Of a stretch of DNA of 17,791 nt, positions 297-16,347 are shown one piece after another. Source of the stretch: a virus (taxonomy: Duplodnaviria; Heunggongvirae; Uroviricota; Caudoviricetes); IMG/VR virus record IMGVR_UViG_2698536647_000006; one strand, given 5' to 3'. Position numbers and translations under genes: made by a program. The notes below the pieces were generated by a model. It worked only from the letters and a program-made list of their open reading frames with translations, was not told the origin of the DNA and ran no database searches. The stretch's first letter is position 1. Each line of letters starts with the position of its first letter.

Positions 297-578
297 CTAC
301 CTTTGCCTCTTGCCGCCATTTAACCGGAAGGCGTTACCGTTCGGTTGCGCTATCCCCATGCGGTGTTGCGTTTCGGTAACAGCTTTATGCATGTCGCCAA
401 AGTCCTCAACCTTCACGGGCGGGCGCTTCACGTTCTCCAGACACGTTTCACGGCGGCGCTTTATCCATTCCCGATAATCGTCCTCGGTGCATAACAGCAT
501 GACTTCTGCCCATCGTGCGGCAGCTCTCCGGTATAGCCCTTTTGACTCCAGCTCTTCAGCTTTCCTGTCCCTTATCAT
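297..578 (-). CDS. Small putative transcriptional regulator (PerC/Pch-like small prophage regulator?)
   Basis: 93-aa ORF with a GAGAGG RBS-like motif just upstream of the ATG at 578. The N-terminal motif AEELESKGLYRRAAARW resembles small PerC-type prophage regulators; this family call is from memory and not verified. Confidence 0.45.
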   Translation of the reverse strand: MIRDRKAEELESKGLYRRAAARWAEVMLLCTEDDYREWIKRRRETCLENVKRPPVKVEDFGDMHKAVTETQHRMGIAQPNGNAFRLNGGKRQR

Positions 579-606: not shown

Positions 607-735
607 AAAAAGGTGTTGGTTCAGTTGGTTCAGTTGGTTCAATTTGTAAAGAGCGTTGTTTTTATTGTGTTTTTTCTAAAATATTGAACCAACATCAACT
701 CATTTTGAACCAACACAGCCCAGCTCTGAACCAAC
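607..735. repeat. Iteron cluster A: three tandem GTTGGTTCA (615-641) plus three spaced TGAACCAAC (685-693, 706-714, 727-735)
   Basis: Direct reading of the sequence. Positions 607-654 are identical to the reverse complement of 7766-7810. Candidate origin or cis-replication iterons for the nearby primase-helicase. Confidence 0.7.
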
Positions 736-788
736 AACACAGCGATAGATTTGTGATTGGTCCGTTATTTTCTGGCTGATATTTGAGC

Positions 789-820
789 GTATAACAGTGT
801 TATACAGTGGTATACTGTAT
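789..820 (+). promoter_or_regulatory. Tandem ~10-bp repeats TATA(A)CAGTG upstream of the 838 start; operator-like
   Basis: gTATAACAGTG / tTATACAGTG / gTATACTGTA read directly at 789-819, ending 18 nt before the ATG at 838. Tandem short repeats are the usual operator type for RHH repressors. Confidence 0.4.
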
Positions 821-837
821 GGATATTACTCACTGAT

Positions 838-1278
838 ATGGTCTTTGCAATGAGCAAATCTAATCTGATCGCGTTCCGCATCCCATCTGAATTGCAGGAT
901 GAGTTTAATCGGTCTGTTCTCGCTTCTGGAGGGGATAAAACCTCCTGGCTTGTTGATGCGATTCGCATGAAGCTGGGACAGATGGAAAAGTCTATTGATT
1001 CACGAATGCTTGGGCTGGTGGAGCGCATGGAAAAAGCCGCAGCATCGCTTATTGCCGGAAAGCCGAACATCCCACCAAAGCCATATAACGAAACGGCAGT
1101 TATAAAGATCATTGCCGATACCATCCGACAGGGATTTGATAATGGGCGTGTGATAGCTGAACGGCTCAATGAAGCAGGCTACCAAACAAAAGCTGGTAAA
1201 GCGTGGGATAAAGACATTTACAGCGCGTGGAAGCGTCAGGGTAACAATATTAAAAGAATCAATACGCTGCTTCAGTAA
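838..1278 (+). CDS. RHH (Arc/CopG-like) DNA-binding protein, 146 aa
   Basis: The N-terminus NLIAFRIPSELQDEFNRSVLASGGDKTSWLVDAIRMKL fits a strand-helix-helix pattern. The C-terminal segment IAERLNEAGYQTKAGKAWDKDIYSAWKRQ resembles the helical DNA-binding module seen in recombinase-type proteins. Start could be the ATG at 850 (MSKSNL...). Confidence 0.55.
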   Translation: MVFAMSKSNLIAFRIPSELQDEFNRSVLASGGDKTSWLVDAIRMKLGQMEKSIDSRMLGLVERMEKAAASLIAGKPNIPPKPYNETAVIKIIADTIRQGFDNGRVIAERLNEAGYQTKAGKAWDKDIYSAWKRQGNNIKRINTLLQ

Positions 1279-1307
1279 TTGATCAGTGTATAAATGATAT
1301 TTATCGC

Positions 1308-2330
1308 TCAATCGCTCCCTTTCCGCCCTTCAGCTACAGGGTCGTTGTCGGCGATAACAAAACCTAAGTCCTGAGAGAATCTCTCTCGTGGGAATCCTTT
1401 AGCAGGTAAACCCATTGAATCATATCCACATCCGGGAACATTTGGTTTAGAGTCAATAAGGTCTGCAATTTGCCGAAGCCATGTTGATCCCGGACCAAGT
1501 TGTTTAACTAAGTACCAGATAATACAGATCGCGCTAAAAATCCTCTCGCAACTCTCTGGATGGAGATTAAGTCCGTCAAAGTATTCATTATCCGGTACTG
1601 GAACTCGGGGATGCTTTCTATTCCATATTCTGGAATGGTGAGCGCAACGATTCCTTATGAGATTAAGGCACTTCAACCATTTTGCAAATGTCTGCTTATT
1701 ATCAATGCCAAAACGACGTATAATTTTCCCCTGCATATGACCATTAAGCATCGCATAATATTTAGACATCTGACCAAAATCCCAGGTCTCCACCGCCACC
1801 CAAAATGGAATCTCCTTGCCTTGGCTTCGATGCCATTCAATACAGTCATCTCTGCTTTCGTCTAATTTTACTTTTTGCTTATACACCCAATGCTCGAAGG
1901 CAGATGAGAATTTTGGATTAATGTATTTTGATGACATGTAGGCAAGTGGATCATTGCGACCAACCTCATGCGCGATGACTGAACGAACATGAATCTCTAT
2001 TCTTTCGATAGCATCAATCATCAAAAGACGCAGTTTTTTGTCAAAAAGATATAGATCGTACGTCTTCTCGAAACTGGTACCAGCAAGAAATCGGTCTGTT
2101 CTGTACGAAAGACCTTTATCTGTTGTCGCAATAATTCTTGATGGGTACCAAAAACCTGACAATCGATAATATCCAACCTGCGACAGCTTACGTATCGCAC
2201 GATTTCGATCATTGATAATCATGCCACGTTCAAGTAGCAATCCTAGCAATTCGTGATAGTCCTTATGAGGCTTTGCGGCAATCATAGTGGCGAAACAAAA
2301 GATAATAAAAGGCCCGACCGTGAAACTCAC
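1308..2330 (-). CDS. Abi_2 family abortive-infection protein (AbiD/AbiF-like)
   Basis: Length ~325-340 aa. N-terminal KPHKDYHELLGLLLERGMIINDRNRAIRKLSQVGYYRLSGFWYP and C-terminal LNLIRNRCAHHSRIWN match motifs I associate with lactococcal AbiD/AbiF-type proteins. The true start is probably the internal ATG at 2285 (MIAAKPHK...). Confidence 0.7.
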   Translation of the reverse strand: MSFTVGPFIIFCFATMIAAKPHKDYHELLGLLLERGMIINDRNRAIRKLSQVGYYRLSGFWYPSRIIATTDKGLSYRTDRFLAGTSFEKTYDLYLFDKKLRLLMIDAIERIEIHVRSVIAHEVGRNDPLAYMSSKYINPKFSSAFEHWVYKQKVKLDESRDDCIEWHRSQGKEIPFWVAVETWDFGQMSKYYAMLNGHMQGKIIRRFGIDNKQTFAKWLKCLNLIRNRCAHHSRIWNRKHPRVPVPDNEYFDGLNLHPESCERIFSAICIIWYLVKQLGPGSTWLRQIADLIDSKPNVPGCGYDSMGLPAKGFPRERFSQDLGFVIADNDPVAEGRKGSD

Positions 2331-2455
2331 ATGCCTGAAATCGGCGGCGGAGAAACAGAGGATCGGGCTCGGTTGCCTGTAACTCTATCCGAAGTTATCC
2401 ACATGTCAATGCACAGTTACTTAGGAAACTAACATAGATACTATCATCACTCACG

Positions 2456-2478
2456 AAAAACCACTATATGTGGTTTTT
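2456..2478. terminator. Perfect inverted repeat AAAAACCAC-TATAT-GTGGTTTTT; possible bidirectional terminator or insulator
   Basis: 9-bp arms read directly, flanked by A/T runs on both sides; lies upstream of the Abi gene start. The stem is AT-rich, so terminator strength is uncertain. Confidence 0.35.
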
Positions 2479-3157
2479 ATTCATATCGTTATCCACTACA
2501 GGCTGTGTCAATAATTTTTACCTATTAATTGGGTAATTTCTACATTTTCCTATGCTGGCTAGTTTCTCTACTGAAAAGTTGGCACTCCTTAATCGCTTTT
2601 CGGTTAATACTATCGGTCTTCATATTGCCAGCAGCATACGCCATCCGATAATTTCGATGCTACGCGCGCGTACTTGTCGCAAAATATCAGGCAAAGGCCA
2701 GATTCAGAACGTCGTGATAACCACCAGCACAACATGAGATGTCATGTAACGCGATTTATCACACCAGATACATGTGATTGGTGTACCCGCATAAAACATT
2801 GTCATAGCGCGTCCTGTGCGCATATACGCCGATAATCAACACATCACCACCACTCTGACTTATGTAGAGAACAGTTTCATGGTATCCCCCGCCATCGTGT
2901 GCGTACTGGTCGGACGCAGTTGCAAAAAATTTTGCAACTGATACCCCTCGCGCGCGTACTTGTCTCGAAATTGGTGTTTTGCTGTGGCAGTGATATCAGA
3001 AAAATCTTCCTGTTTCACATAAAGCGGATATGCGCGTACTGTAACGACCCCATCAACTGGGAGCGGATTTGAAATCCCGACCCAAGCTATGTACCAAATG
3101 CCATGTCTTGGATATATGATGATTGCCATTCTAAACAAAGCTAAAGGGAGGGTTGGT

Positions 3158-3508
3158 GTGAATGCTCAGGCTGTCATCATGGTTTTACTTGGTCTGATTG
3201 TCGCAAAACTATATCCAGACTGGTGGAAAGGGGTATTAGCAACTGTCGCCATCTATTTGCTTTTATCCGTCGTTAAGCGATCGTTCGTTAAGACCGTAAA
3301 TCAAGCAAAACGTTTCTCATTTAAGAATTTAATAAACTATATTACTGGGCTTATTTTTTGCCTTTCAATTTTGATCGCTTCAGCTTTTTTGCCCGTATCA
3401 ATAGCTAATTTTTTTGGCGCACCATATGAGGTAGGTTATCTATTCTCTGTTTTTTGTCTTGTTCTTTCCCTTCTTTACCTATGGATGAGAGCAAAGAACA
3501 AAAATTAG
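3158..3508 (+). CDS. Small integral membrane protein (~116 aa, four predicted TM helices); candidate immunity/partner protein
   Basis: Four hydrophobic stretches of ~15-23 residues. Strong RBS AAGGGAGG (3144-3151) sits 6 nt before the GTG at 3158; the ORF-track start at 3089 has no RBS. Convergent with the 701-aa gene. Confidence 0.5.
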   Translation: MNAQAVIMVLLGLIVAKLYPDWWKGVLATVAIYLLLSVVKRSFVKTVNQAKRFSFKNLINYITGLIFCLSILIASAFLPVSIANFFGAPYEVGYLFSVFCLVLSLLYLWMRAKNKN

Positions 3509-3522
3509 CCATCCATGGCTAA
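3500..3522 (-). terminator. Hairpin TTAGCCAT-CC-ATGGCTAA in the 18-nt gap between convergent stop codons, followed by TTTTT on the minus strand
   Basis: Read directly between stop 3506-3508 (+) and stop 3527-3529 (-). On the minus strand the stem is followed immediately by a T5 run, fitting an intrinsic terminator for the cargo operon. Confidence 0.45.
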
Positions 3523-3526
3523 CCAG

Positions 3527-5632
3527 TTATTGAGATTCTTTTTGTGATGCCTGTGCGACTCTGGTGAGCGATTGTGTGACCGTACTGATCGCTCTGTCAT
3601 ATGCTGTGCTACCTTTTGGCGTATTTGCCAGACGTAACAAGGCATTTCGTATAACAGGGCTTTCGTATGCCTTCGCTGCTCCGCCTACGACACCAGCAGC
3701 AGGAACAACAAACGCAGCCGTTTTTAGCATCCCCGCTAATACTGCTGCGTTTATGATGCCACCACCAACTAACAATCCATAAAGCTGCTGACCATTTAAG
3801 TTTTGAACGTTCGCTTTTGCCGCGTGTCTTGTATCATTGAGGTATTTAATAACGCCGTCCAGTTCCTTTCCATATACGCCTTTAAAGAAAGTTGCTGATT
3901 GCTTCCTGTTCCGGTGTAACGCATTAATAAACTTCTCAACACTGATATTTCCAGACGGATCAGTCGCCTTATCTACAGCATTCTGAACTATGGCGGCTCG
4001 TGCGTTTTGCCTACCATTGTCATCCAGAAGCCTGTAAAGCTGAGAACGTTCTGATGGGTTTTGGCTAAAAACGAGTTTTGTTACATCCTCAGGCGTGGCC
4101 TTGCCGCTGGCTATTGCCTTTTGAACGCGCGTTCTTCCCATCATGTCATTGAATCTAGCCCATGAGCGATCAACCCTAGACATATTGGTAGCTTCTTCTG
4201 AGCCTAGTTTTTGGGATACTGCTTTTTTCATATCCGCTGTATATGCCTTGTAGACAATATCGCTGGCTTTCTGGAGCGTGTCTTTATCAACAGTCTCGTT
4301 TGAATTCATGAACCGCTTTCGAAGGTCAGTTCTGTTTTCTCTCGCCAGACGCAGGTCATTGGGTCCGCTGGTGATATCGTCTTTAAATTGCTGCAAGACT
4401 TTTACCGCGGCTCTATCCTGAGATTTGCCCGGTCGGCTTAACACGGCAATCTGATTGTCGATAGCTTTTACCGTGTTTGAGAGATCGACAGGGGTATCCC
4501 CCATAGCGTCAATTATGCGGTTATATCGCTTTCCTGCTGCCTCAATGAATTTTTGCTGCCCTTTAGTCGCAGACTCATAAAGCTGTTTATCTGAAATTCC
4601 CCCCAGACCATCGCTAAATGTTCTGACTAAATTTTCTCGTGCTTGTTGTTGATTCAGTCGGTTCTTACCGGTTCCAAAAAAAGGAAGTCTTTCGCCTAAT
4701 GTCTGAGCCTGACTCTGCATAAAGGTTTTATCTTTCAGCATGTCACTGGTCATTAACGGCAGATTTCTTTCCGATGCAAAGTCGACAGCAGCCTTTGCTT
4801 CAGGCGACATATCACCACGAACAGCCCTCGAAACCGCACTCGCTGTATTTTCCAGCCCCTTACCAATACCACCAATGCCAGCAGAAATTACCGTTTGTAA
4901 CGGATCAATATCTTCTCCACCAGCAAGGCTGGTGGCTCCCTGTAGTGCTAAATCTGTAGCTGCTGATTTTCCTATGGCACCAAGCACCGTTCCAGCCCTG
5001 CCCGCTGGTGTAAACGCCAACGCATTAGCAAGAAACGAAGTCAGGTCTTGCGGTGATAAACCCGGCTTGTTTAGGGCATAATCACCTGATGGCAGAGAAA
5101 CGATAGTATTCCCCTTCTCATCCTGCCTTAATGTCGCCCCCATTCCCTGAAGAATCTTTTCCTGAGACGCGTCAGAGCCGAAAAGTTGAGACCATCCAGC
5201 CTTTAAGGCATCCATGCTTAGTGAGTTCAATTCTGGGGCAGAGGCGACATTTTGCAGTCTCTCCATCTCTGGAGTCATTCGGCTTTCGCCTGTTATAGCA
5301 TCGCGCATCGCAGCCCCAAGACTGGCTCCCTGTTCTGCTGAACGCTCAAGCCCCTCTCTTTGCTGAGTAGCTAACTTTGCATACCCTGACGCAAGAGAAT
5401 TATCAGATGATGTATGTTGAATATTTTGAGTTGCTGATTGGGATCGGTCTATTTCATTCGTTGATGGCAGTGGATAGGCAGCATAAAAAGCCTGCTTAGC
5501 CTGCTCTACACTTTCTCCGGCTTGCGGGGCCACGACTTCATTGAAGTATTGCTCCTGAGCCTGCGCTTTTTGTTCTGGTGCTAACGCCTGATACTGTGGA
5601 GAAGCGATAACATCTTTCCATGCTTTAGCCAT
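3527..5632 (-). CDS. Hypothetical 701-aa low-complexity (A/G/Q/S-rich) protein with a C-terminal hydrophobic helical hairpin
   Basis: Long ORF whose ATG (5632-5630) overlaps the upstream stop as TAATG, with GGGG 6 nt upstream. No P-loop or other catalytic motif seen by eye. Hydrophobic segment LYGLLVGGGIINAAVLAGML-KT-AAFVVPAAGVVGGAA lies ~48 residues from the C-terminus. Confidence 0.8.
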   Translation of the reverse strand: MAKAWKDVIASPQYQALAPEQKAQAQEQYFNEVVAPQAGESVEQAKQAFYAAYPLPSTNEIDRSQSATQNIQHTSSDNSLASGYAKLATQQREGLERSAEQGASLGAAMRDAITGESRMTPEMERLQNVASAPELNSLSMDALKAGWSQLFGSDASQEKILQGMGATLRQDEKGNTIVSLPSGDYALNKPGLSPQDLTSFLANALAFTPAGRAGTVLGAIGKSAATDLALQGATSLAGGEDIDPLQTVISAGIGGIGKGLENTASAVSRAVRGDMSPEAKAAVDFASERNLPLMTSDMLKDKTFMQSQAQTLGERLPFFGTGKNRLNQQQARENLVRTFSDGLGGISDKQLYESATKGQQKFIEAAGKRYNRIIDAMGDTPVDLSNTVKAIDNQIAVLSRPGKSQDRAAVKVLQQFKDDITSGPNDLRLARENRTDLRKRFMNSNETVDKDTLQKASDIVYKAYTADMKKAVSQKLGSEEATNMSRVDRSWARFNDMMGRTRVQKAIASGKATPEDVTKLVFSQNPSERSQLYRLLDDNGRQNARAAIVQNAVDKATDPSGNISVEKFINALHRNRKQSATFFKGVYGKELDGVIKYLNDTRHAAKANVQNLNGQQLYGLLVGGGIINAAVLAGMLKTAAFVVPAAGVVGGAAKAYESPVIRNALLRLANTPKGSTAYDRAISTVTQSLTRVAQASQKESQ

Positions 5633-7080
5633 TAATCACCCCATAGTGAAGAAAAGTTACTGCTGGCTGCTGGCTGTGATACCTGTGCAGGTTGAGATTG
5701 CTGCCGCTGAGATTTACCAACATTAACGTTATATTGCTGGTTGTAATTGTCGGTATATTGCTGAATGTCGCGCATTGATTGTTGTAGTGCTTCAGGGCTT
5801 GAGAAATCAGGCTTTGGCATACCCTGAAAATACCTATTGGCCTCTGCTTCGGTGTTGATGCCAGATGCCCCCATATCTCGGGCTGCCGCAATCCCCTGAT
5901 TTTGCATTTTGCCCATGATTCGCTGTGCAGCGTTGTATAGTTTCCTCTCCTCAACACCAGATGCCCGGCTACGAATATCTGCACCAAGAGCAAAAGAACC
6001 TGAAGAACCTGTAATACCTGTCATGAAGCCAAGATCGTCAATTGATGCGCCAGAAATTGCATCAAGATCTTTCTTCATTTCGTAATTCTGCGCATTAGCT
6101 GCCGATGTAGCCGGAGCAGCAATAGAACTTGCGGGGACGCGAATCATATTGCCCTCGTTGTCTATTCCTTCGTAGAACGCATTAGCACCAGCGCCGTGAA
6201 GCTTCCTACCAACCGTTACCGTTCTACCATCTGCCAGTTGCACAACATTCTCCCCGCCAGCAGCAGGACGGCCTCGAACACGAAGATATGTCTTTTGTTG
6301 CTCTGGAGACAGGCTGTTGAAATATTGATATTCTTTAACAGATGCAGGAACAGCACCTCCAGCAGTGCGCAGAGAGTTTTCACGGCTAACAGCAATGCTT
6401 TGCGCCTGTAAACCTTCCCCAGCTTTATTGCTGCGAATCGTCTCTGCCAACTCGCCACGCTCAATATCCCGACCCTCCATTCGATCTTTGATATCGAAGT
6501 ACTTCTCATGACCGAGAGAAAACAGCGCCAGATTACCTGCGAAATGCTGGAAGCCCTGCGGGTCATTAACCTGCATTTCAGCAATAGTTTCTGGAGGGAT
6601 ACCTAAACGACGCATCTCCTGCTCATTATCCATCATGAACCTGCCAAATGCGCCCGGACCAAGCGATGAGGCTACCTGTGCTTTGAGCGCCAGATTGCCA
6701 TAATCATCCCTTTGAGCATCATCGACATAACTCATCCCTTTACGGACTTCCTCAAACTCTTCTGGGAATGCTGTAATAAGATTACGCATCTGCTCCCTGT
6801 CGCCGGACGCATAAGCATCTGCATAACCTTTCTGGAATGCCGCTTTACGCTCCTGCTGTTGCTGCTGCTTATAAATATCAGCAACTCCAGCCAGACCACG
6901 TAACGCGGTCAGACCAACGTTATTTGCACCTGAGCGAGCCAGTTCATTGTTTTCGCGGATCAGACCAAGCGTTGCGTTAATGTCGCTTGCCTTTGGCGCA
7001 TTCTCATTTTGCGTACCGATGCCAGCCAGAAAACCACCAGAATTAATACCCTGTTGCCACGTAGCCATTGATTTACCCAC
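5632..7080 (-). CDS. Hypothetical 482-aa low-complexity (Q/G/A/N-rich) protein, translationally coupled to the 701-aa gene
   Basis: Long ORF with no recognisable enzymatic motif. The track start is GTG at 7080; an alternative ATG at 7068 lies 4 nt after the stop of the 57-codon ORF. Confidence 0.8.
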
Positions 7081-7246
7081 GTCCAGTTAAAGTGTAAGCC
7101 AGCGCCTTATCCATTAATCCCCGAGCAATTTCGTGGATCGTTGGCGCAACTCCTACCTCTGATTTTTTACGCTGCTCCTCCTGAATTTTCTTTATCGCTT
7201 CCATTTGCTTCTCACTTATCAATACTGGCTTTACTGAAATAGCCAT
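7073..7246 (-). CDS. Unannotated 57-aa ORF, RHH-like; first gene of the cargo operon
   Basis: Manual translation: ATG 7246-7244, TAA 7075-7073, giving [66 protein letters not shown] lies 4-5 nt upstream. Below the ORF-track cutoff. Confidence 0.45.
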
Positions 7247-7261
7247 AACGCCCCCTTAGAA

Positions 7262-7277
7262 CTGTATAAAACAACAG
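7262..7277. promoter_or_regulatory. LexA (SOS) box CTGT-N8-ACAG
   Basis: CTGTATAAAACAACAG read directly, with an AT-rich spacer. About 14/20 positions match the E. coli consensus TACTGTATATATATACAGTA, including both half-sites. A perfect TATAAT on the minus strand (7285-7280) lies just upstream, though no good -35 was found. Confidence 0.55.
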
Positions 7278-7341
7278 TTATTATAGTTTCACAAATCGCA
7301 ATATTCATCATCGTAATTGCAAAATATGAAACAAATAGCAC

Positions 7342-7374
7342 AAAAAAATGCCACCGCTCAGTAGCTGGTGGCAT
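7342..7374 (-). terminator. Rho-independent terminator (minus strand) separating the primase/iteron region from the cargo operon
   Basis: Minus strand reads ATGCCACC-AGCTACTGAGC-GGTGGCAT followed by TTTTTT: an 8-bp GC-rich stem plus T6. Confidence 0.6.
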
Positions 7375-7568
7375 CGTTCTGTATGTCAGGTTTTGACAGG
7401 TTTTTTATGGACTCTAAAAACTATATTTATGGTGTCGCATTACTCTTCACGGCAGGCGCTTTCCAGTTCTGCCCTTGCTTCTGGCTCCATTGGTAATTTG
7501 ATTCGCGATCAGCTATGCGGATGGTTTGCTGAACAGGCATAACAACTTCTCAAAGGCTGTTTTTTGAA

Positions 7569-7644
7569 CTACGAAAATTTCGTAGTGCTCACTTTCAAAA
7601 ACGTCACGCCCTTGTACACAGGATTTTACGAAAGTCTCGTAAAA
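7569..7644. promoter_or_regulatory. Two related palindromes: CTACGAAA-A-TTTCGTAG (7569-7585) and TTTTACGA-AAGTC-TCGTAAAA (7624-7644)
   Basis: Both read directly and share inverted TACGA/TCGTA half-sites, centre-to-centre ~57 bp apart. They lie between iteron cluster B and the cargo-operon promoter; candidate operator sites. Confidence 0.35.
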
Positions 7645-7694
7645 CACTCTCTGATGCCAGCCAGGTGTTGTGCGCATCAATTCAGTCACATTGT

Positions 7695-7810
7695 GTTGGT
7701 TCAAAATACCGTGTTGTTGGTTCAGTGTTGGTTCAATAAAAAGAATAAAATCCTTATAAAACAATACTCTTTACAAATTGAACCAACTGAACCAACTGAA
7801 CCAACACCTT
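7695..7810. repeat. Iteron cluster B: three spaced GTTGGTTCA (7695-7703, 7716-7724, 7727-7735) plus three tandem TGAACCAAC (7779-7805)
   Basis: Direct reading; mirror image of cluster A. Lies immediately 3' of the primase-helicase gene, so it is a candidate ori. Confidence 0.7.
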
Positions 7811-7830
7811 TTCTACGCACATGAAGAAGC

Positions 7831-10587
7831 TCATTCTTCAGATGAGTTATAATCTCCAGGCTGGTAATTGAGTACATAAACGTTTATTTGTCGTCCCTGA
7901 ATACGTGGTGATTTTCTTTGGTATCCACGACCGCTGTTTGGTGGGGTTAGCATCCCGGCTTTTTTCAACACTTCAGCAAACTGTTTTGCGTTGAAACCAC
8001 ATGCGATCTCCTTTTCAAATGTGGCCGGGAATGTGTAGAAAATCATTGGGCTTTCGTCATGTTCTCCACGCTGACGGTATCCGGCCAAATCTTTGATGGG
8101 CAAATCTGCCGGGCTGTATGGAAATGGTGCAAAACGGCTAAGCCCATAGGCATTAAGAAATGCCTCCGTTTGTTCAATAATCTGCTGATGTTCTTTGTTA
8201 CCTGTGCCGAACTCGCGCAACCATGCGTTATAGCTGTGCTGTATCGCATCACGGCATGTCTGAGCATCCCAGCCTGTTACAACCTCGCCTAACAGCAATG
8301 CGGCCTCCAGAATGGCAAATCGCGCGGCTACACGGTGAACCTGCTCACCATAATCGGATGGGATCAGACTTCTCCATCTGCTTTCGCAGTCACGAACAGT
8401 TTTAATTGCCTGTTGCTGGTGGTCTGCCAGCCATTTAATCCACTCACGCCCGGCTGCGCCGTGGTGATGCTGGTAAGCGTCTTTCAGTGCGTCTGCGTGC
8501 TGTTTTCCGTTCTGGTAATCGTGAAAGCGTACTGCTTTACTCAACGGAATATTCAGCAGTCGCACCAGTTGCCCGGCTTTGGTTTTTCGCCCGGAAGTAG
8601 CGATAAATGTTTCTAAATCCATTTCTCCAGTGCTGATTGCCACTGTACGCCAGCGTTTTAGATCCCGGTTTCCACCATCTTTAGCGCCTTGCAGTTTCCC
8701 TACACCGTTAAATAACGCATAGGCAGACTGTGAAACACTGACAGGATCAGCGCCCTGACCAACTTCATCAAGCGGTATTAGTCCGTCATTGTGGGCGGCG
8801 GCTTCATTTGCCAGCCCCAGCGCGGTTCCGTACCACGTCAGCCGCAATAAATCAGGGTTGCCGTATAAGCTGCTCGCCACGTTTGCCGTGGTGGTCTTAC
8901 CTGCGCTCGACTGCTCATAGAAATGAATGCCGAACCCGTCAGCGCCCACCAGCCCAATCAATGGCGCTGCCAGTGCTGCGCCGATCCCGGTCATCATTGA
9001 ATAGTTACCAAAGGCCAGACGCGCCACGTTATCACGCCAGCTTTTCGCGCTCCCTGAGACGGTATATCCGGCTGCGGCTGAGCTTCTCCCGCTGAACAGC
9101 ACAGGATTTTCAGGTGTTCCGATGATTTCCCCATCAGGCATGATGTACGCTCCGCATTGCCAGCCAGTGGCATGAGCAACACGCCACAATTCACGAGAGC
9201 CACTGCGTTGTAGCCAGTCTGCCAGTATTGCTCTGAGGCTGCTTTTGGTCGTGACATTTACCCCACCAGCTTTAAGTGTGCGCCATCCTTCACGTTCACC
9301 AATATCAGCCAGTGGAATAGCAGCGGTTGTCGGCGTTTCAGAACCAAACGACAGCCAGCGAAGAATGAGATACTGGTCTTTATCGTCTCTGCCAGTACCG
9401 ATAACGCTTAACGGAGAACATAACCAGCTTTCGTTATTGATGATTTCTCCACTCTGGCTGTCAGCTCTCGGAGATACCCAATAAATACCATCCTCGCGGC
9501 TTTCTATTCTTGGTTTCAGTGGGTCGGTATCCATAACCTTAAAATCGCTTCCCTCAATGGTCTGTGGCTGCTGTTTCACGCCATTACCCTGTGGTTGGTA
9601 CATTGACTTATTGAACGCTTCTGTGGCGCATTTAATGCCGTGTTTTTGGTGGTAATCATTCCAGTCTGCTTTGTGATCTGTCGGGGGTAATGCCACCCAT
9701 CCAGAAACAGATAAAGCTGCTTTTTCTGCTGCTATTCTCCCCGTGTTTTGTCTTCCTTCGCTGTGGTCGTTATCCGCAGCAATGATGATTTGTGCTGAAG
9801 GAAATTTATCCCGCAGTACCTGGGCGACATATAACAGGTTCCCGGCATCAATCGCCGCCACTGTCAGCGATTCTGGACGAATTAAATGGGCAGATAATGC
9901 CGTTGCCAGCCCTTCTGCGATTAAGATGCTCTGTGTTGTTTCTGGTGCGTTTATGGCGTGATATGCCCCTCGCTTTGCTGAACCTGTCAGGAGTCTTTTT
10001 TCACCATGTGAGGTAATAGTCTGTGCTGCTGTGACTGCGCCGGATTTATCCACCAGCGCCAGCAACAGAGATCCATCGGGCAACACTGGGAATGTAAAAT
10101 CACCTACCCCTTTCGCAACCAGATAATCAGATTTGCCGTTTACAGCCTTTCTGCGCATGTCATCAAACTGACGGGAAAACGTATCCCGTCTTTGTTGTTC
10201 GTCCTTCTCTGCCCTTTTCAGGCGCTCCTGTTCGCGTCGCTGGCGCTCGGTTTCCAGTTGTTCCCGTTTCTGGCTGGTGGCTTCTGGTGTTTCCGTTGTC
10301 CGGTAATCAATACCCAGAACATCAGCGGCAAGCAGCGCCGCCTCTGTTGTGTCGCAGTTATTTACGCGTTTAATTAAATCCAGCCCATCACCAGCGCCGC
10401 ACTGATTACAGATGAAGCTACCGCGCCCGTTGTCATCGAACCGGAATCGATCTTTGCCCCCACATGCAGGGCAGGGAGCATGACGGCGCGGAGAGTCAGG
10501 GACATTTATGTTCAGGCAGCCCAGCACATGAGGCCAGTTGTTTTCAGACGCACTGATAACCTGACGGATAAGATCAATGTTTCGCAT
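7831..10587 (-). CDS. Primase-helicase (zinc-ribbon primase, TOPRIM, P-loop NTPase), 918 aa
   Basis: Cys-rich N-terminus CPACGG...CNQCG; TOPRIM-like IAEGLATA...AADNDH; Walker A SSAGKTT and Walker B-like IPLDEVGQ. GGGGG RBS 5 nt upstream of the ATG at 10587. Architecture resembles satellite-phage replicases such as P4 alpha. Confidence 0.85.
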   Translation of the reverse strand: MRNIDLIRQVISASENNWPHVLGCLNINVPDSPRRHAPCPACGGKDRFRFDDNGRGSFICNQCGAGDGLDLIKRVNNCDTTEAALLAADVLGIDYRTTETPEATSQKREQLETERQRREQERLKRAEKDEQQRRDTFSRQFDDMRRKAVNGKSDYLVAKGVGDFTFPVLPDGSLLLALVDKSGAVTAAQTITSHGEKRLLTGSAKRGAYHAINAPETTQSILIAEGLATALSAHLIRPESLTVAAIDAGNLLYVAQVLRDKFPSAQIIIAADNDHSEGRQNTGRIAAEKAALSVSGWVALPPTDHKADWNDYHQKHGIKCATEAFNKSMYQPQGNGVKQQPQTIEGSDFKVMDTDPLKPRIESREDGIYWVSPRADSQSGEIINNESWLCSPLSVIGTGRDDKDQYLILRWLSFGSETPTTAAIPLADIGEREGWRTLKAGGVNVTTKSSLRAILADWLQRSGSRELWRVAHATGWQCGAYIMPDGEIIGTPENPVLFSGRSSAAAGYTVSGSAKSWRDNVARLAFGNYSMMTGIGAALAAPLIGLVGADGFGIHFYEQSSAGKTTTANVASSLYGNPDLLRLTWYGTALGLANEAAAHNDGLIPLDEVGQGADPVSVSQSAYALFNGVGKLQGAKDGGNRDLKRWRTVAISTGEMDLETFIATSGRKTKAGQLVRLLNIPLSKAVRFHDYQNGKQHADALKDAYQHHHGAAGREWIKWLADHQQQAIKTVRDCESRWRSLIPSDYGEQVHRVAARFAILEAALLLGEVVTGWDAQTCRDAIQHSYNAWLREFGTGNKEHQQIIEQTEAFLNAYGLSRFAPFPYSPADLPIKDLAGYRQRGEHDESPMIFYTFPATFEKEIACGFNAKQFAEVLKKAGMLTPPNSGRGYQRKSPRIQGRQINVYVLNYQPGDYNSSEE

Positions 10588-10599
10588 TCTGGCCCCCGT

Positions 10600-11202
10600 T
10601 TAGTGCGTCACTGGTGCTTCTGGGATGCCGTTTTCGTTTAGTTCGGCAATAAAGCTGTTGTGAAGATCGGCAAGCACTTCTCGCCCAAACGAAGTGAGTG
10701 TTCCCTGTTCGACATCGAACATGTTGCTGTAAAAAATGATGGCATTATTTGTTCCGACATCAACACCATATTTCTCGATCATTGCGCCCTCAATGTTGTT
10801 TGCCATAGCGAGGCGCTCTGCTACTGGATACAGCGGCATGGCGACGATGCCATTGGAATAAACAGAAACCACGGAATGATTGCCACTGTCATCAATAATG
10901 CTGACGGTGCCGTTTTCCTTTCTCATTTCATTGATGAATGCTGTTGCTATCAGCCAGCGCCACATAATCACGTGATGCTGTGATGTGTAATCGAAATATC
11001 CCTGGTTGCCGCCACTGGCAATAGCGAGATGTATAAACATGCCTTCATCTGGTTTATCGTCATAATCCCCGGCATCCAGACGATTTACGGCATCAATATA
11101 TGAGACGGTATCAACGCGTTCTGTCATGCCATCGTTGCTGCGGTACATGATGTTTACGCCGTCAGGCGTTGCTTCTGCATGGAAAGTTAAGAAATTATTC
11201 AT
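10600..11202 (-). CDS. Hypothetical protein (~200 aa)
   Basis: ORF-track frame 10600-11307. The likely start is the ATG at 11202 (MNNFLTF...), which overlaps the upstream stop as ATGAATAA. No family recognised. Confidence 0.55.
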   Translation of the reverse strand: MNNFLTFHAEATPDGVNIMYRSNDGMTERVDTVSYIDAVNRLDAGDYDDKPDEGMFIHLAIASGGNQGYFDYTSQHHVIMWRWLIATAFINEMRKENGTVSIIDDSGNHSVVSVYSNGIVAMPLYPVAERLAMANNIEGAMIEKYGVDVGTNNAIIFYSNMFDVEQGTLTSFGREVLADLHNSFIAELNENGIPEAPVTH

Positions 11203-11416
11203 GTTTCGCCTCGCCTGAATGATTCTGTAACTCATATTTGCCCAACAATTCGTCCGCTTCCTGAATAGCTTCTGGTACGCCATTGAGCAGTGACATAACC
11301 GCGCCAATCATTAACTTGTCTCTGTTGCTGGGGCTGGCCCCTTCAAGCCAGAACCCTAAAACAGTCTGAACCTGTTCGATGCGACATTGCGCTTCAATGA
11401 GCTGGATGTTGGTCAT
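11195..11416 (-). CDS. Hypothetical small protein (73 aa)
   Basis: ORF in the co-directional, overlap-coupled gene chain; no family recognised. Confidence 0.5.
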   Translation of the reverse strand: MTNIQLIEAQCRIEQVQTVLGFWLEGASPSNRDKLMIGAVMSLLNGVPEAIQEADELLGKYELQNHSGEAKHE

Positions 11417-11676
11417 TTCGCACTCTCCACATCGATTAAACCGATATCTATCAGGGAGGTAACTTTTTGTAGCCAGCTATTGATTACTGTCGCCTGTTCC
11501 CCTCCCACCGAGGGAACAATCTCATTCATCACATGAACCAGACCTGTGCGCGCTCTGGTAAGCCGTTCAGTCGCGCAATCTGCGGGAGTGAATGTGTCTG
11601 GATATGGCTCTTCGCGCCCCAGCAATGATTCAATTTCCAGCTCACACGGATGACGATAAATTAAGTTGATATTCAT
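11413..11676 (-). CDS. Hypothetical small protein (87 aa)
   Basis: ORF in the co-directional chain with a 4-nt overlap to the neighbouring gene; no family recognised. Confidence 0.5.
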   Translation of the reverse strand: MNINLIYRHPCELEIESLLGREEPYPDTFTPADCATERLTRARTGLVHVMNEIVPSVGGEQATVINSWLQKVTSLIDIGLIDVESAK

Positions 11677-11867
11677 TTTTCACCCCCAAGAATTACCAGC
11701 TCGGCACGGGCATCGTTAACCAAAGATGAGCGCGCTTTAATCGCATCCACGACATCAGCAGCGTCCATTTCTTCAGCCGAAAGACTGACAGCAACCGGGA
11801 CAGCCGCTGCTTGCTCGATTAATTGAAGTGCGGACGTAAGGCGAGGGGTATTAATTGAGTTATTCAT
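11673..11867 (-). CDS. Hypothetical small protein (64 aa; track ORF extends to 11924)
   Basis: The ATG at 11867 is preceded by GGGGG and overlaps the upstream stop as ATGAATAA; the longer track start has no RBS. Confidence 0.5.
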   Translation of the reverse strand: MNNSINTPRLTSALQLIEQAAAVPVAVSLSAEEMDAADVVDAIKARSSLVNDARAELVILGGEK

Positions 11868-12078
11868 TGGTTGCCCCCGTTTTGCATGGCATTTGTCCAC
11901 CTTCCAGCAGGAAATGAACGTCACGAACGGCGAGGTCCAATATCGCGAGTAACGCCTTCAGTTTTTCGTCTCGTGAGGGAGAGTTGCTCACCAGAATGTC
12001 GTTAATCACTTCTGTCAGTGTGATGATCTGGCTTGTGCGTTCGAGGGGATCCATATGCACATCGTAGGTTTTAATCAT
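11860..12078 (-). CDS. Hypothetical small protein (72 aa), nested in-frame at the 3' end of the 355-codon ORF
   Basis: ATG at 12078 with GGAGG 6 nt upstream, overlapping the stop of the 12071-12265 ORF as ATGATTAA. Product [30 protein letters not shown]... looks protein-like. Confidence 0.45.
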   Translation of the reverse strand: MIKTYDVHMDPLERTSQIITLTEVINDILVSNSPSRDEKLKALLAILDLAVRDVHFLLEGGQMPCKTGATNE

Positions 12079-12927
12079 GTGCCACCTCCATGCGGATACG
12101 ACCAGCAAAAAAGCAGATGTGATCGCGCACCAGAGAACGGCGAGCATCGCGTTCAGACTCGGCAGCAATATGATGAATTTTGGCGGTAATTGTCGGGCAA
12201 TCGCGGCGAACTGCGGCGATAATCCAGATAAATTGCGTTTTTTGGGTAGGGGTAGTAGCCAGCATGTGGCAGCCTCCTTCAGATAGCAGGTTACGCTACC
12301 ACCGGAAACGCCAATTTCGCTGGTGGTAGCCCAGACAGGGTTGGCGTAACCGGCTCTGAAGGATACCGGCGCTTCCGAAGAAGCCCCCGCCTGAGCCACC
12401 ATTGATTGACAAAGGCGCTGGATTATACACCAACGCCCAAAAAATGGGTGAGTCAGACCTACGACATAAAAAAAGACGCTCGGCGCGTCATATGTCGCCT
12501 TCAGAATTTTCAGGACGCCAATCCCGGCACCCGTTTTATGAGGTGCCTTATAACCATAAACCGTGTTGCCGCATAACGGCAAGCTCTTTTTTATGGACTC
12601 CGAAAACTCACTATTGGAAGAACCAGAAGCACAGTACATCGCGCTCATTTCGTTAACGTCACGCGCGTGGACGAAGGTTTTTGTGGAGTCACTACACGAG
12701 CAGAGAAAGCCATCTACGACCAGAAATTCTCTGGCATAGCCGCTGACCTTCTCAACGCTAACACCATCGACCGTAATTTCTGACATAGTTAAGGCATCCG
12801 CTCCTACCACCAGAAAATGATAAACTTTGCTTGTATCTGCTGTATTAATGTCTGACTTTGCTGTCATATTGCTGGATTTTGGCGACATACCAGCCAGTGA
12901 AAATATCTTCTTCTGGGCGGTTAGCAT
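11860..12927 (-). CDS. 355-codon ORF, probably composite; the 5' ~220 codons may be a real gene
   Basis: ATG at 12927 with GGAGG 7 nt upstream, and no in-frame stop until 11860. The middle segment overlaps a strongly RBS-fronted ORF in another frame and reads as low-quality protein; hairpins lie inside it. Confidence 0.3.
12071..12265 (-). CDS. Hypothetical small protein (64 aa)
   Basis: ATG at 12265 with a perfect AAGGAGG 7 nt upstream. It overlaps the long 355-codon ORF in a different frame. Confidence 0.4.
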   Translation of the reverse strand: MLATTPTQKTQFIWIIAAVRRDCPTITAKIHHIAAESERDARRSLVRDHICFFAGRIRMEVAHD

Positions 12928-13103
12928 TTGTTAACCTCCGCGAACTCCTTCATGAAACGTGCCAGCGGTTGTACGCATGGCGATTGATACCCGTCGCGAT
13001 AAAACGTCACTCGGTTGTGAGACACGCTTTCGACAGTAACGAGTGCTCCGTGGGCATCTTTGTAGCGTTTTTGAGGTTGTGGTGTTCCTGTCGGCTTAAA
13101 CAT
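12921..13103 (-). CDS. Small conserved island protein (~60 aa; possibly DUF4222-like)
   Basis: ATG at 13103 (MFKPTGTPQPQKRYKDAHGALVTVESVSHNRVTFYRDGYQSPCVQP...) overlaps the upstream stop as ATGTTTAA. Resembles small prophage proteins I recall; family unverified. Track ORF extends to 13190. Confidence 0.45.
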   Translation of the reverse strand: MFKPTGTPQPQKRYKDAHGALVTVESVSHNRVTFYRDGYQSPCVQPLARFMKEFAEVNKC

Positions 13104-13929
13104 GGACCGCCTCCAGACGCTTGGCGAGCCAGCGTTGCGACAGGCGGGTGAGTTCTCCTTTGCGCTGCTCATATTCCATGCCCATATCAATTAACGTGAT
13201 ATTGGTGCTTTCGAGATATGAGAGGTGCTCAAGCTGTTCTGCGTTCATATGGTCGCGAGGTTCGCCAGAATAGCCATTTATCCGCGCCCACTGCTTAGCA
13301 GTTAGCCCACCAAGAACGATACGAGAAATCATATTGCTCTCGTTTGTGTAGTGGTGTTGCTGCGTCGTTTTCCCCTGCTCGGCACGGGCCATATTCAGCG
13401 CATCGCACATTGGCTTAAAGTTGTTTGCGGCACTAATACGGGCTTTTAGCTGGCGACGATAGCGGGCGGCGATTTCAGGCACGCTACGCTGTAATTCTTC
13501 CTCGCACTGGATGAAATAACGACGGATAGCGCGACCCTGATCATTGCGTTCGATCATTGCCAGTTCTTTCGCCATTCCGACACTTAACAGATAGTCTTTG
13601 CCGGGTCTGCCAGACTGCTTAATCTTGCTGTAAGCCGCGCCATTCGGGCTTTTCCCCAAATTTGGGGAAATTGTTTTATGGACTGAGTAATCGTGCCCAA
13701 TGGTGAAGTCATATTCAGAGATGCGATCAGTGATCCATGTAGAGAAGTCTTTTCCCACGCCCAACGCTTTGTGTAACGCTTTTGCGCTAACAATATTGGT
13801 TTCACGCCCACCGATATGACCAGGAATAACCGGGACAATTGCGGCAAATTCATTACCGTTAATTGTGCCCAGAGAGGCGTTCAGATGAGGGGCAGCCTCA
13901 GAAATTAATCTGCTTTTTTCGATGTTCAT
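13096..13929 (-). CDS. Phage antirepressor-like protein (AntA/KilA-C type), 277 aa
   Basis: N-terminal VSAKALHKALGVGKDFSTWITDRISEYDFTIGHDY matches the AntA-type motif as I recall it; the C-terminal half is helical. Family call from memory. Confidence 0.6.
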   Translation of the reverse strand: MNIEKSRLISEAAPHLNASLGTINGNEFAAIVPVIPGHIGGRETNIVSAKALHKALGVGKDFSTWITDRISEYDFTIGHDYSVHKTISPNLGKSPNGAAYSKIKQSGRPGKDYLLSVGMAKELAMIERNDQGRAIRRYFIQCEEELQRSVPEIAARYRRQLKARISAANNFKPMCDALNMARAEQGKTTQQHHYTNESNMISRIVLGGLTAKQWARINGYSGEPRDHMNAEQLEHLSYLESTNITLIDMGMEYEQRKGELTRLSQRWLAKRLEAVHV

Positions 13930-13941
13930 TTTCAGTCTCCG

Positions 13942-14373
13942 TTAGGCGGCGTTAAACGCGTCCGGGTAGAGTTTCAGAATGTCGGCAATTTCCTGCTGAG
14001 AAAGTCCGTTGTGATCATTTATGTTCGCAAGATGGTTAATATGAGTGATCACTTTCAGAACATCACCACGGCAGGAGAAACGGTAGCGAAGGTGTGTTCC
14101 GATACCATCAGGATTCTTTTCGTCGATACGCTCCAGAGTGATTCCAAGCTGGCGTTCTAACTCTGTTGCATAGTTACGACCAGAAGACAGACGGCAGTAG
14201 CGAAGAATGTCATTTTCTGTCCATCCCTCTATACCAGTACGCAGCATATAGACTCTGGCACGATGCTTTTTCGGTGTGCGCTTTGGTGCTTGAAGGGATT
14301 TTGTAAGGGGCGTAACATCAGATACACGAATATCTGAATTAGCCGCCTGTAATGGGCGGTTTTTCTTTTCCAT
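13942..14373 (-). CDS. Hypothetical protein (143 aa)
   Basis: ORF immediately downstream of alpA with a 1-nt TGATG stop/start overlap; no family recognised. Confidence 0.55.
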   Translation of the reverse strand: MEKKNRPLQAANSDIRVSDVTPLTKSLQAPKRTPKKHRARVYMLRTGIEGWTENDILRYCRLSSGRNYATELERQLGITLERIDEKNPDGIGTHLRYRFSCRGDVLKVITHINHLANINDHNGLSQQEIADILKLYPDAFNAA

Positions 14374-14576
14374 CAGGCCATCTCGTCTCTAGATTCTAAT
14401 ATACACTTCTCAATCCATTCATCTATTTCAGACTCAACAAAAGCAATTGCCCGACTTCCAATTTTTACCTGTTTAGGGAACCTCCCCTGACTAATAAGAC
14501 GATAAATCCATGCTTTGCTATAACCAGTTCGCCTTTGAACTTCAGAGAGACGAATTAATGAATTGTAATTAGCCAT
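14373..14576 (-). CDS. alpA: AlpA-family phage regulatory protein (small HTH activator/excisionase-like)
   Basis: 67 aa; LIRLSEVQRRTGYSKAWIYRLISQGRFPKQVKIGSRAIAFVESEIDEWI matches the AlpA/Vis-type HTH pattern. Sits next to the integrase, as usual in tRNA islands. Confidence 0.85.
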   Translation of the reverse strand: MANYNSLIRLSEVQRRTGYSKAWIYRLISQGRFPKQVKIGSRAIAFVESEIDEWIEKCILESRDEMA

Positions 14577-14967
14577 TTATTAATATCCTGTACTAATGAC
14601 GCAATAACCCCCTCCTGCAACGAATGGCGAGAGTTTTATTTGCGTCAAATGCCGAATACGCCAAAGACCACAATATGAAAAACATATTGCGGTCTTTTAT
14701 AAAAGATAGTCAGATTGTTTTGGTTTGTTTGCTCCACAAGGGTAGAGCTACCCTGCATTTCGGCAGGATCACGCTATTAGGCGTGACATCCAGTAGTTTT
14801 AAAGAACATTCCGCTTTGTCAGCGACGTAGAAGGCTCAATACACCTTCGTTTATAAAAGAGCGATTGCCCTTCTCCAGGGCTAACTGTTAAATAGCAATC
14901 CTCTGTGAGTTTTTATCAATCTACTCCCCTATACTTTAGTAAACCTCTGTATACTTGTCCAGTTGTT

Positions 14968-16182
14968 TCATGCGTGTTTTTCAAACACCATATGCACCAC
15001 ATTTCCGCCATGCTCGAGAGAATCCATATAGTCGGCATACCATTGAAGCATCTCCCGCCTTCCATCCAGATATTGCGCATGGTTGTATGTGCCACGAATT
15101 GAGTTCTTATCAACGTGAGCGAGCTGCGTTTCTATCCACGCGGTGTTATAGCCCTGCTCATGCAAAATCGTACTCATAGTGTGCCGGAACCCATGACCAG
15201 TTACACGTCCAGCGTAGCCAATGCGCTTAAACACTTGGTTTATGCTGGCCTCGCTCATTGTTTTCCTTGGATCATTGCGCCCGGGAAACATAAGAGGGTA
15301 ATTGCCTGTTATTTCTCTAATCTTCCCAATAAGCGAAAGAGCCTGCTCAGACAATGGCACAATATGAGGCCGCCGCATTTTCATACGTGAAGCGGGTATC
15401 TCCCAGATAGCCTTGTTGAAATCAATTTCATCCCATAATGCGCCACGTAGTTCGCCAGTCCGCAAGCCGGTGATAATCAGTAGACGAGCCGCCATAACAA
15501 CCAATGCGCTTCCTGAGTAACTGGACAATGCCTTGAAAAAATCAGGTAATTCTTTGGCTGTAAGGAAAGGGTAATGATTAGATTCATGGCCTTGCATCGC
15601 GCTAGTAAGGTCTGGTGCAGGGTTATACTCTGCGCGACCAGTGACTATTGCATAGCGGAAAACTTCCCCGCACCGCTGCCTCACTTTTTTGGCTTTTTCT
15701 GTAGCACCGCGCCCCTCGATGCGCCGCAGCACATTCAGAAGTTCAAGTGGTTTGATTTCGGCGATTGGTTTTTTGCCAATGTAAGGGAACACATCTTTGT
15801 TGAAGGCTTCGAGGATGTCTGAAGCATAACCAGCAGACCATTTTTTTAATTTGCTGCTGTGCCACTCAAGGGCAATATCTTTGAAGGTGTTGTTTAACTG
15901 CGTTTCCCGGGCAATCTTTTCCTCTCGTTTCGCTTCCATCGGATCGATACCACCAGCGATACCTCTTTTCGCATCTTCACGTTTTGCCCGAGCATCGGCT
16001 AGAGTAACCTCAGGATACACACCTAGTGCCAATAGCTTCTCTTTACCAGCTACACGATATTTAAGTCGCCAGTATTTACCTCCATTAGGTTTTACCAAGA
16101 GATACAAACCGCCACCATCGGCCAGCTTGTAAGCCTTCTCTTTTGGCTTGGCTGTGTCTATTTGACGGGCATTGAGTTTCAC
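14968..16182 (-). CDS. int: P4-type tyrosine integrase
   Basis: 404 aa; N-terminal arm-binding pattern LADGGGLYLLVKPNGGKYWRLKYR and C-terminal catalytic region HGFRHT...LAH...Y. Starts at GTG 16182 with GGAGG upstream. Adjacent to the tRNA 3' end. Confidence 0.9.
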   Translation of the reverse strand: MKLNARQIDTAKPKEKAYKLADGGGLYLLVKPNGGKYWRLKYRVAGKEKLLALGVYPEVTLADARAKREDAKRGIAGGIDPMEAKREEKIARETQLNNTFKDIALEWHSSKLKKWSAGYASDILEAFNKDVFPYIGKKPIAEIKPLELLNVLRRIEGRGATEKAKKVRQRCGEVFRYAIVTGRAEYNPAPDLTSAMQGHESNHYPFLTAKELPDFFKALSSYSGSALVVMAARLLIITGLRTGELRGALWDEIDFNKAIWEIPASRMKMRRPHIVPLSEQALSLIGKIREITGNYPLMFPGRNDPRKTMSEASINQVFKRIGYAGRVTGHGFRHTMSTILHEQGYNTAWIETQLAHVDKNSIRGTYNHAQYLDGRREMLQWYADYMDSLEHGGNVVHMVFEKHA

Positions 16183-16254
16183 TTGGGGGTACCTCCACTA
16201 AACCGAACAGCAAATACCCCCATAAGTACCCCCATCTGACCGTAGATTTTGAGG

Positions 16255-16330
16255 GACTTTAGTAGACGTCAAAAGACGAACGGGGCTTTAATACGCGGAT
16301 TATAAGGGGTTTTGAAAGACTTTAGTAGAC
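16255..16330. repeat. 13-bp direct repeat GACTTTAGTAGAC (16255-16267 and 16318-16330) between int and the tRNA; candidate integrase arm-type sites
   Basis: Two exact copies read directly, 63 bp apart, inside the att-proximal non-coding region. Confidence 0.4.
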
Positions 16331-16347
16331 TTGGGGAGATGTTTGAA

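Follow-up and report, generated by a model that had tools for sequence, protein, structure and literature searches.

Two facing, probable origin units in a phage-inducible chromosomal island

Origins of phage-inducible chromosomal islands (PICIs) have so far been described as a single iteron/AT-rich unit directly after the initiator gene, and the island in IMG/VR record IMGVR_UViG_2698536647_000006 raises the question of what a second such unit, facing the first across some 7 kb of other genes, might do. The window (the whole stretch of 17,791 nt analysed here) can be assigned, on gene order and similarity, to an EcCIMP1-like PICI of Escherichia coli at the thrW/proA site. It holds two iteron clusters: unit B, directly 3′ of the pri-rep gene for a fused primase and replication initiator of 918 aa, and unit A, at the far end of the intervening segment beside a perC-family gene. 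We consider it fairly probable that these are two complete, facing PICI-type origin units and that unit A is a second unwinding-competent origin acting in cis with unit B, so that the origin is bipartite.

The 9-mer GTTGGTTCA (reverse complement TGAACCAAC) occurs in 12 exact copies in the window, six in each cluster and none elsewhere, against a chance expectation of ~0.14 copies per 17.8 kb on both strands (our arithmetic). With up to one mismatch there are 17 matches, compared with 4.3 ± 2.0 in shuffled sequence (17 was attained in 0 of 200 shuffles), and the five one-mismatch copies away from the clusters are at chance level. Each unit is ~120 bp long and sets three tandem iterons against three opposed ones around an AT-rich spacer, as follows.

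615-735, plus then minus strand: unit A (distal), the mirror image of unit B
615-641, plus strand: unit A tandem (outer) iterons, three contiguous copies of GTTGGTTCA starting at 615, 624 and 633
642-684: unit A AT-rich spacer, 43 bp, 79% AT, beginning with the conserved ATTTGTAAAGAG
685-735, minus strand: unit A inner inverted iterons, starting at 685, 706 and 727, spaced 21+21 bp (two helical turns)
7695-7805, plus then minus strand: unit B (proximal)
7695-7735, plus strand: unit B inner iterons, starting at 7695, 7716 and 7727, spaced 21+11 bp
7736-7778: unit B AT-rich spacer, 43 bp, 84% AT
7779-7805, minus strand: unit B tandem iterons, contiguous, starting at 7779, 7788 and 7797
608-662: left arm of a long inverted repeat, pairing with 7758-7812
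7758-7812: right arm of the same repeat, pairing with 608-662
7831-10587, minus strand: pri-rep, fused primase and replication initiator, 918 aa (Zn_Ribbon_Prim, Toprim_3, DUF927)
297-578, minus strand: perC-family regulator, starting 37 bp outside the distal tandem iterons

Inner iterons spaced by 11 or 21 bp lie one or two helical turns apart, and the spacer spans about four turns. The arms of the inverted repeat (55 nt, 96% complementary) include a perfect stretch of 46 nt, in which 608-653 is the reverse complement of 7767-7812, and the segment that the clusters bracket is 736-7694 (6,959 bp). An earlier reading of this DNA from its letters alone, here called the sequence-only reading, had described six copies in each of two mirrored clusters and the identity of 607-654 with the reverse complement of 7766-7810; the copy count and mirroring are confirmed, and the end points are correct to within 1-2 nt. 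Its inner spacing of ~21 bp fits both intervals of unit A and one of the two in unit B. It had also placed cluster B at the 3′ end of the primase-helicase gene, and unit B does end 25 bp from the pri-rep stop codon (7831-7833). The 43-bp AT-rich spacer between tandem and spaced iterons in both clusters is a feature absent from that reading.

Match to PICI origins and the initiator protein

PICI origins, including those of the Staphylococcus aureus pathogenicity islands (SaPIs), comprise 6-12 iterons, at least two on each side and in opposite orientation, around a central AT-rich region (PMC9371898, PMC6092414), and lie immediately downstream of the rep open reading frame (ORF; PMC6092414, PMC9371898). 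Units A and B share this iteron number, orientation and AT-rich centre. Unit B also lies directly 3′ of the initiator gene and can be classed on all sequence features as a canonical PICI-type origin, whereas unit A, 7.1 kb away beside perC, would be a complete PICI-type origin unit save for its position. On these features, and on the helicase half of the initiator, the clusters are closer to the PICI/SaPI origin than to that of phage P4.

The link between the clusters, as iteron arrays, and the primase-helicase of the island is supported, and the protein itself joins two ancestries. The primase part of P4 alpha is homologous to residues 7-361 (33% identity, E 1e-41), and no significant similarity to P4 alpha extends beyond residue 361; residues 415-809 (DUF927) align to residues 95-473 of the 580 of SaPI Rep (PDB 8tch, E 2.5e-11). 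SaPI Rep binds its iterons by a winged-helix C-terminal domain (PMC9371898), and the last ~110 aa of the 918-aa protein would, judged by position only, sit where that domain sits in Rep.

If the 918-aa protein acts as SaPI Rep does, its C-terminal domain would bind the iterons, and hexamers assembled on both sides of the AT-rich spacer would melt it and self-load. The canonical origin would be unit B; unit A, whose 43-bp spacer is a presumed unwinding region, would be an old paralogue of B that faces it from the other side of the late module, and A and B together would form a bipartite origin analogous to P4 ori plus crr, its cis-acting replication region. Protein binding, spacer melting and the firing of unit A, as opposed to only pairing with unit B, are steps that we infer. 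On the excised circle of the island, which we estimate at ~17.6 kb, the units would be 7.0 kb apart one way and ~10.4 kb the other way.

Conservation, paralogy and gene conversion of the units

Relatives were found by scanning one genome of each species for the triple iteron and by looking up homologues of pri-rep (handles beginning with L denote the sequence blocks retrieved). Islands with the same 9-mer occur in at least 10 enterobacterial genera, in a split form with two separated units, like that of the window, and in a compact form. In 12 units, drawn from 6 genera, identity is 99-100% in the iteron columns and 43-61% in the columns between them, and the tandem triple of unit A shows no variation. 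Three split-form distal units gave identical/different pair counts of 162/0 in iteron columns and 143/116 elsewhere, from sequence pairs that are not independent, so that p-values are illustrative only. The spacer is exactly 43 bp long and 67-84% AT in all proximal and all split-form distal units, although its sequence drifts. Unit A appears to be kept intact by selection, and would therefore also be bound by the initiator.

A common signature, distinct from that of the proximal spacers, unites the distal spacers of Escherichia, Salmonella, Leclercia and Cedecea, so the distal units are orthologous across genera and represent an old paralogue that was not duplicated recently in host after host. 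The units have undergone gene conversion in two Salmonella islands (L067 and L068), where distal-type sequence has replaced the proximal spacer, with an 88-nt perfect inverted arm (L067 12786-12896 and 19409-19529); a third Salmonella island (L052) retains distinct proximal and distal spacers. A distal-type unwinding region can therefore occupy the canonical origin position in natural islands.

Compact and split forms

The split form, found in Escherichia (the window, EcCIMP1, L050 and L051), Salmonella, Leclercia and Cedecea, has a full second unit with a 43-bp AT-rich spacer that faces the proximal unit over 4.8-8.4 kb of differing genes. In the compact form, found in Klebsiella, Citrobacter, Pectobacterium, Enterobacter, Erwinia, Lonsdalea and a second E. 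coli island type, the second array abuts the proximal unit (~260-270 bp in total) and is followed by SSB/PerC genes and then the late genes. In the compact second array a tandem triple is combined with one inverted and two flipped iterons, and in most compact genera the spacer of this array is 34 bp and GC-rich (29-38% AT); given this different layout and spacer, the array is not equivalent to the split-form distal unit. On the same grounds, simple insertion of cargo into a compact double origin is a less favoured explanation. Intermediate distances also occur, with ~950 bp between units in an Erwinia metagenome-assembled genome and ~170 bp in another contig. The sequence-only reading had proposed that the 9-mer arrays would stay fixed in homologous islands while the enclosed genes vary, and this is what the relatives show; its description of the clusters as bracketing a gene block applies to split forms, as many relatives enclose nothing and have the second array against the origin.

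Proximal units of most relatives repeat the 11+21 inner spacing, with EcCIMP1 (21+21) as an exception. Six blocks (L016, L019, L025, L026, L041 and L044) contain a proximal unit only and end too early to exclude a distal one. Distal units of Salmonella, Leclercia and Cedecea lie at the island end with no perC after them. The cluster is carried by 548 of 5,426 complete E. coli genomes (~10%), at a median of two places per genome, and genomes with a single place are explained in that some retain only the distal unit. Two such remnants were observed: isolateD (L048 12020-12140) has kept only the distal unit, perC and a pRiA4b-ORF3 gene, beside a different thrW prophage, and 2013C-4361 (L049) has kept the same three beside an island disrupted by an insertion sequence.

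Several short sequences accompany the iterons. The motif ATTTGTAAAG touches the tandem iterons at 642-653 and 7767-7778 and stands in the same place in nearly all proximal and split-form distal units across genera, and TATATA..AAGCAAAAAGGT outside the distal triple is conserved in E. coli, Salmonella, Erwinia and Lonsdalea; no consensus for integration host factor or DnaA was evident by eye in the motifs flanking the iterons. The GC-rich 34-bp spacer of compact arrays, e.g. GCAAAATCCAGTGCTGGCGCGGGCTGGCGGGCAG, is conserved; it was seen at L054 12992-13035, L058 13027-13070, L033 3994-4037 and L046 6074-6117, and could form a hairpin or be a binding site for a host or island protein.

Possible roles of the distal unit

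Several points weigh against a second initiating origin. In EcCICFT073, the initiator gene and the origin 3′ of it sufficed for plasmid replication (PMC6092414), and the distal unit may therefore be dispensable. The compact second array, with its 34-bp GC-rich spacer, looks like a binding array and not a melting site, and the ancestral role of the second array may have been auxiliary rather than initiating. No experiments on the origin of this PICI family were found in the searched literature, and the dependence among the compared pairs limits the statistical side of the conservation argument. The AlphaFold2 model of the 918-aa protein, from an input alignment of 28 sequences with 80-88% identity to the query, has a mean predicted local distance difference test score of 49.5, with the C-terminal half below 50, and is too poor to confirm a winged helix, so no such claim is made from structure.

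A tentative alternative, serious although unlikely, is that unit A is only an auxiliary or control site: initiator bound at A would pair with that bound at B and loop out the 7-kb module, either as a step required in cis for initiation, as with P4 crr, or as a restraint on copy number by handcuffing. Handcuffing has parallels in incA of P1 and incC of F. The layout follows P4 logic, with ~120-bp iteron units after the replicase gene and a distant iteron site, and the primase domain is P4 alpha-like; the GC-rich second array of compact relatives is unlikely to melt, and EcCICFT073 replicates from its proximal origin alone (PMC6092414). However, split-form distal units retain the exact 43-bp AT-rich spacer, as true origins do, and the replacement of the proximal spacer by the distal type in L067 and L068 argues for full origin geometry; looping or handcuffing was not reported for any PICI initiator in the searched literature. 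We retain the bipartite origin with an unwinding-competent unit A as the probable reading. A further step, which we regard as doubtful, is that the facing units act as a working pair, in which dual initiation or initiator-mediated pairing preferentially replicates or loops out the helper-specific DNA-delivery genes and the defence hotspot. If true, the late and defence module of a satellite would owe its gene dosage or expression to the origin architecture, and the island would be a natural replicon whose origin halves can be drawn kilobases apart.

It is improbable that unit A is a relic without function, left behind when two related islands recombined, for instance when PICIs in tandem at a single att site underwent deletion. 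Recombination among thrW islands does occur, isolateD retains unit A and perC beside an unrelated prophage, and perC lies inside the bracket in Salmonella and outside it in E. coli; but four genera have all six distal iterons intact with no more than 43-55% identity in the DNA between them, the spacer has a constant length of 43 bp, and the distal units are orthologous across genera. The unit-A region of the E. coli island L050 is 87-88% identical to that of the window and yet has six perfect iterons.

We give little credence to the view that the unit A iterons are mainly an operator, at which initiator binding just upstream of perC, and in relatives upstream of the late genes, would couple transcription of the late genes or virulence regulator to replication. 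The 37 bp between tandem iterons and perC start codon would suit such a role, as would the SSB or PerC genes directly after the second array in compact relatives. Against this, perC does not follow the distal units of Salmonella, Leclercia and Cedecea, sigma-70 promoter scans around both units, including 400-1000, found nothing, and an operator would not need a conserved 43-bp AT-rich spacer; an operator function would in any case be compatible with origin function and not exclusive of it.

That the clusters are terminal inverted repeats of a transposable cassette, the other suggestion of the sequence-only reading, or recombination sites of an invertible segment, is scarcely credible and both were rejected: a 55-nt, 96% inverted repeat does bracket a gene block of variable content, but no target-site duplication or other direct repeat flanks the arms (GATAAGCA versus CTACGCAC), no transposase or invertase is among the enclosed ORFs, in every relative the inner ‘repeat’ is the origin of the replicon itself, compact relatives have their second array against that origin with nothing enclosed, perC changes sides of the bracket between Salmonella and E. 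coli, late-module exchange breaks away from the clusters (see below), and, despite the inverted homologies, orientation is fixed, with the chimeric junction diagnostic of inversion in 0 of 5,426 E. coli genomes.

The enclosed segment

Most of the DNA between the units belongs to a conserved late module that encodes virion DNA-delivery proteins, and a variable hotspot takes up a further 1.9 kb, with the following features.

2598-7694, minus strand: late module between the units
7350-7365, minus strand: terminator-like hairpin with T-run, between the proximal origin and the 57-aa ORF
7073-7246, minus strand: 57-aa ORF
5632-7080, minus strand: P22 gp20-like DNA ejection protein
3527-5632, minus strand: gp16-like DNA-transfer/transglycosylase protein, 701 aa
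3089-3508, plus strand: orf139
737-2597: variable accessory hotspot, touching the inner edge of unit A
1308-2330, minus strand: AbiD/Abi_2 gene in the hotspot (PADLOC AbiD, 5.7e-58)
838-1278, plus strand: orf146, an ORF of 146 aa in the hotspot

The description of the pair as inverted and enclosing accessory cargo thus stands in its first part, while the enclosed DNA is not purely accessory. Given the hairpin at 7350-7365, the late module is probably transcribed apart from the pri-rep operon. The module is partly conserved in other E. coli islands, and lies between the units in split forms and after both arrays in compact ones. In L050, L051 and L062 the hotspot holds other genes, and in strains M10 and Ecol_244 and in EcCIMP1 its genes are unrelated and include a small helix-turn-helix gene, alpA_1. 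Late-module exchange among E. coli islands has its breakpoints at ~7098 and 3100-3160, and the clusters were rejected as crossover points of this swapping; only the hotspot abuts unit A. For annotation, the 9-mer arrays mark the replicon, and the distal unit with the conserved 2598-3163 block delimits a hotspot with defence genes such as AbiD.

Every relative's late module encodes one large virion DNA-delivery protein whose type varies: P22 gp20/gp16-like ejection proteins in E. coli, a tape-measure protein of 904-1021 aa in Salmonella, Klebsiella and Leclercia, and an SLT-domain protein of ~590 aa in Citrobacter, Enterobacter, Pectobacterium and Cedecea. The delivery-protein genes lie at 3527-7246 in the window, L052 14876-17776, L054 15092-18157, L058 14295-16085, L029 4642-6396 and L004 2191-4905. 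Capsid or terminase genes were found in none of the islands of this lineage, which suggests that the satellites supply or replace the helper's ejection or tape-measure protein; in EcCIMP1, genes of the delivery type were termed only candidate packaging genes (PMC11773190). The bracketed module of Cedecea davisae also encodes a homologue of the P4 ‘beta’ protein (L029 1998-3113; PF14350, 5e-53), which, with the alpha-like primase and Ash domains, is a further P4-type part in the PICI backbone.

Identity of the island

Read in one direction from thrW, the island encodes int, alpA, antA, ash, pri-rep and perC; the full backbone runs from the integrase through the AlpA-family regulator, AntA/AntB, DUF4222, Ash and small ORFs to the 918-aa protein, with the PerC-family gene beyond the bracketed segment. 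This gene order is that of Gram-negative PICIs (PMC6092414), and int, alpA and pri-rep all lie on the minus strand beside tRNA-Thr, as in the EcCI type. The features at this end of the window are these.

14373-14576, minus strand: alpA-family regulator (PF05930, 7.5e-20)
14968-16182, minus strand: tyrosine integrase
16348-16423: tRNA-Thr (thrW)
16538-17791: proA

Over 7098-16538, a span that runs from the 57-aa ORF to the integrase/att region, the window shares 95-98% identity with EcCIMP1 of E. coli MP1, which also bears both origin units and for which excision, circularisation and transfer by the P22-like phage Kapi1 have been demonstrated (PMC11773190). No capsid, terminase, tail or lysis genes were seen in the window, which encodes the two virion DNA-ejection proteins listed above; ejection genes of this kind are also present in EcCIMP1, an accepted PICI (PMC11773190). 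The far end of EcCIMP1, ~1.3 kb left of the window start, is marked by a 16-bp repeat of AGTAGACTTGGGGAGA beside a second, truncated integrase; in strain EPSSH018, the 3 kb to the left of the window contained no att direct repeat of the tRNA-Thr 3′ end. Between the integrase gene and tRNA-Thr, a 21-nt direct repeat (TTTTGA..GACTTTAGTAGAC, 90%) at 16247-16267 and 16310-16330 is possibly a pair of integrase arm-type sites.

Comparison with known systems

As in the PICIs SaPIbov1, SaPI1 and EcCICFT073, the origin here lies immediately 3′ of the initiator gene, opposed iterons flank an AT-rich region, and the initiator is of the self-loading DUF927/MCM-like helicase kind, with a primase fusion as in SaPI5 PriRep. 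The iterons differ in length (9 bp here versus 5-6 bp), and the present islands differ from those PICIs in their second array, which is either a complete inverted unit 4.8-8.4 kb away or, in compact relatives, an abutting array. We found no description of a second, paralogous and inverted origin unit in the searched literature on PICI origins and EcCIMP1, and the EcCIMP1 publication does not mention iterons or an origin (PMC11773190). The second array of this widespread enterobacterial PICI lineage, which includes the experimentally mobilised EcCIMP1, is thus apparently undescribed and a modest variation on a known origin; in four genera it is a full origin unit, paralogous to the first and facing it with the late module in between.

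EcCIMP1 occupies the same thrW/proA site and has both units in the same places, at L062 9853-9973 and 18393-18513, with perC beside the distal one. Its inter-unit late module is 8.4 kb, with a 906-aa transglycosylase protein, DUF2824 and alpA_1, compared with 7.0 kb in the window, with gp20-like and 701-aa proteins and AbiD, and its proximal inner iterons are spaced 21+21 rather than 21+11. The helper/satellite pair Kapi1/EcCIMP1 therefore poses a concrete question: whether a PICI origin can be bipartite in the manner of ori/crr, and whether its second unit fires, pairs or regulates.

The analogy with P4 ori and its cis region, drawn by the sequence-only reading, is apt but inexact. Both systems have a multifunctional primase-helicase-initiator, with zinc-ribbon/Toprim N-termini that are homologous; the replicase gene is directly followed by ~120-bp units that combine tandem iterons (9-bp period) with inverted ones (for P4, the crr in the annotation of NC_001609), and a second iteron site lies kilobases away on the same small circle. 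However, the helicase/origin-binding half of the P4 protein is unrelated to that of the 918-aa protein, which is DUF927/SaPI Rep-like, and the P4 type I iteron TGTTCACC differs from GTTGGTTCA, so that the units are not of the P4 type in this respect. P4 crr consists of two direct 120-bp repeats, whereas the units here are inverted, and P4 ori lies upstream, so that the P4 pair encloses the replicase operon where the present pair encloses the late module.

Iteron plasmids offer a looser parallel. P1 (incC/incA) and F (incB/incC) have two arrays of the same initiator-binding repeat with genes between them, and pairing of the arrays controls initiation; their split arrays flank the initiator gene, the second array is without an unwinding region, and the initiators are of the RepA type and not helicases.

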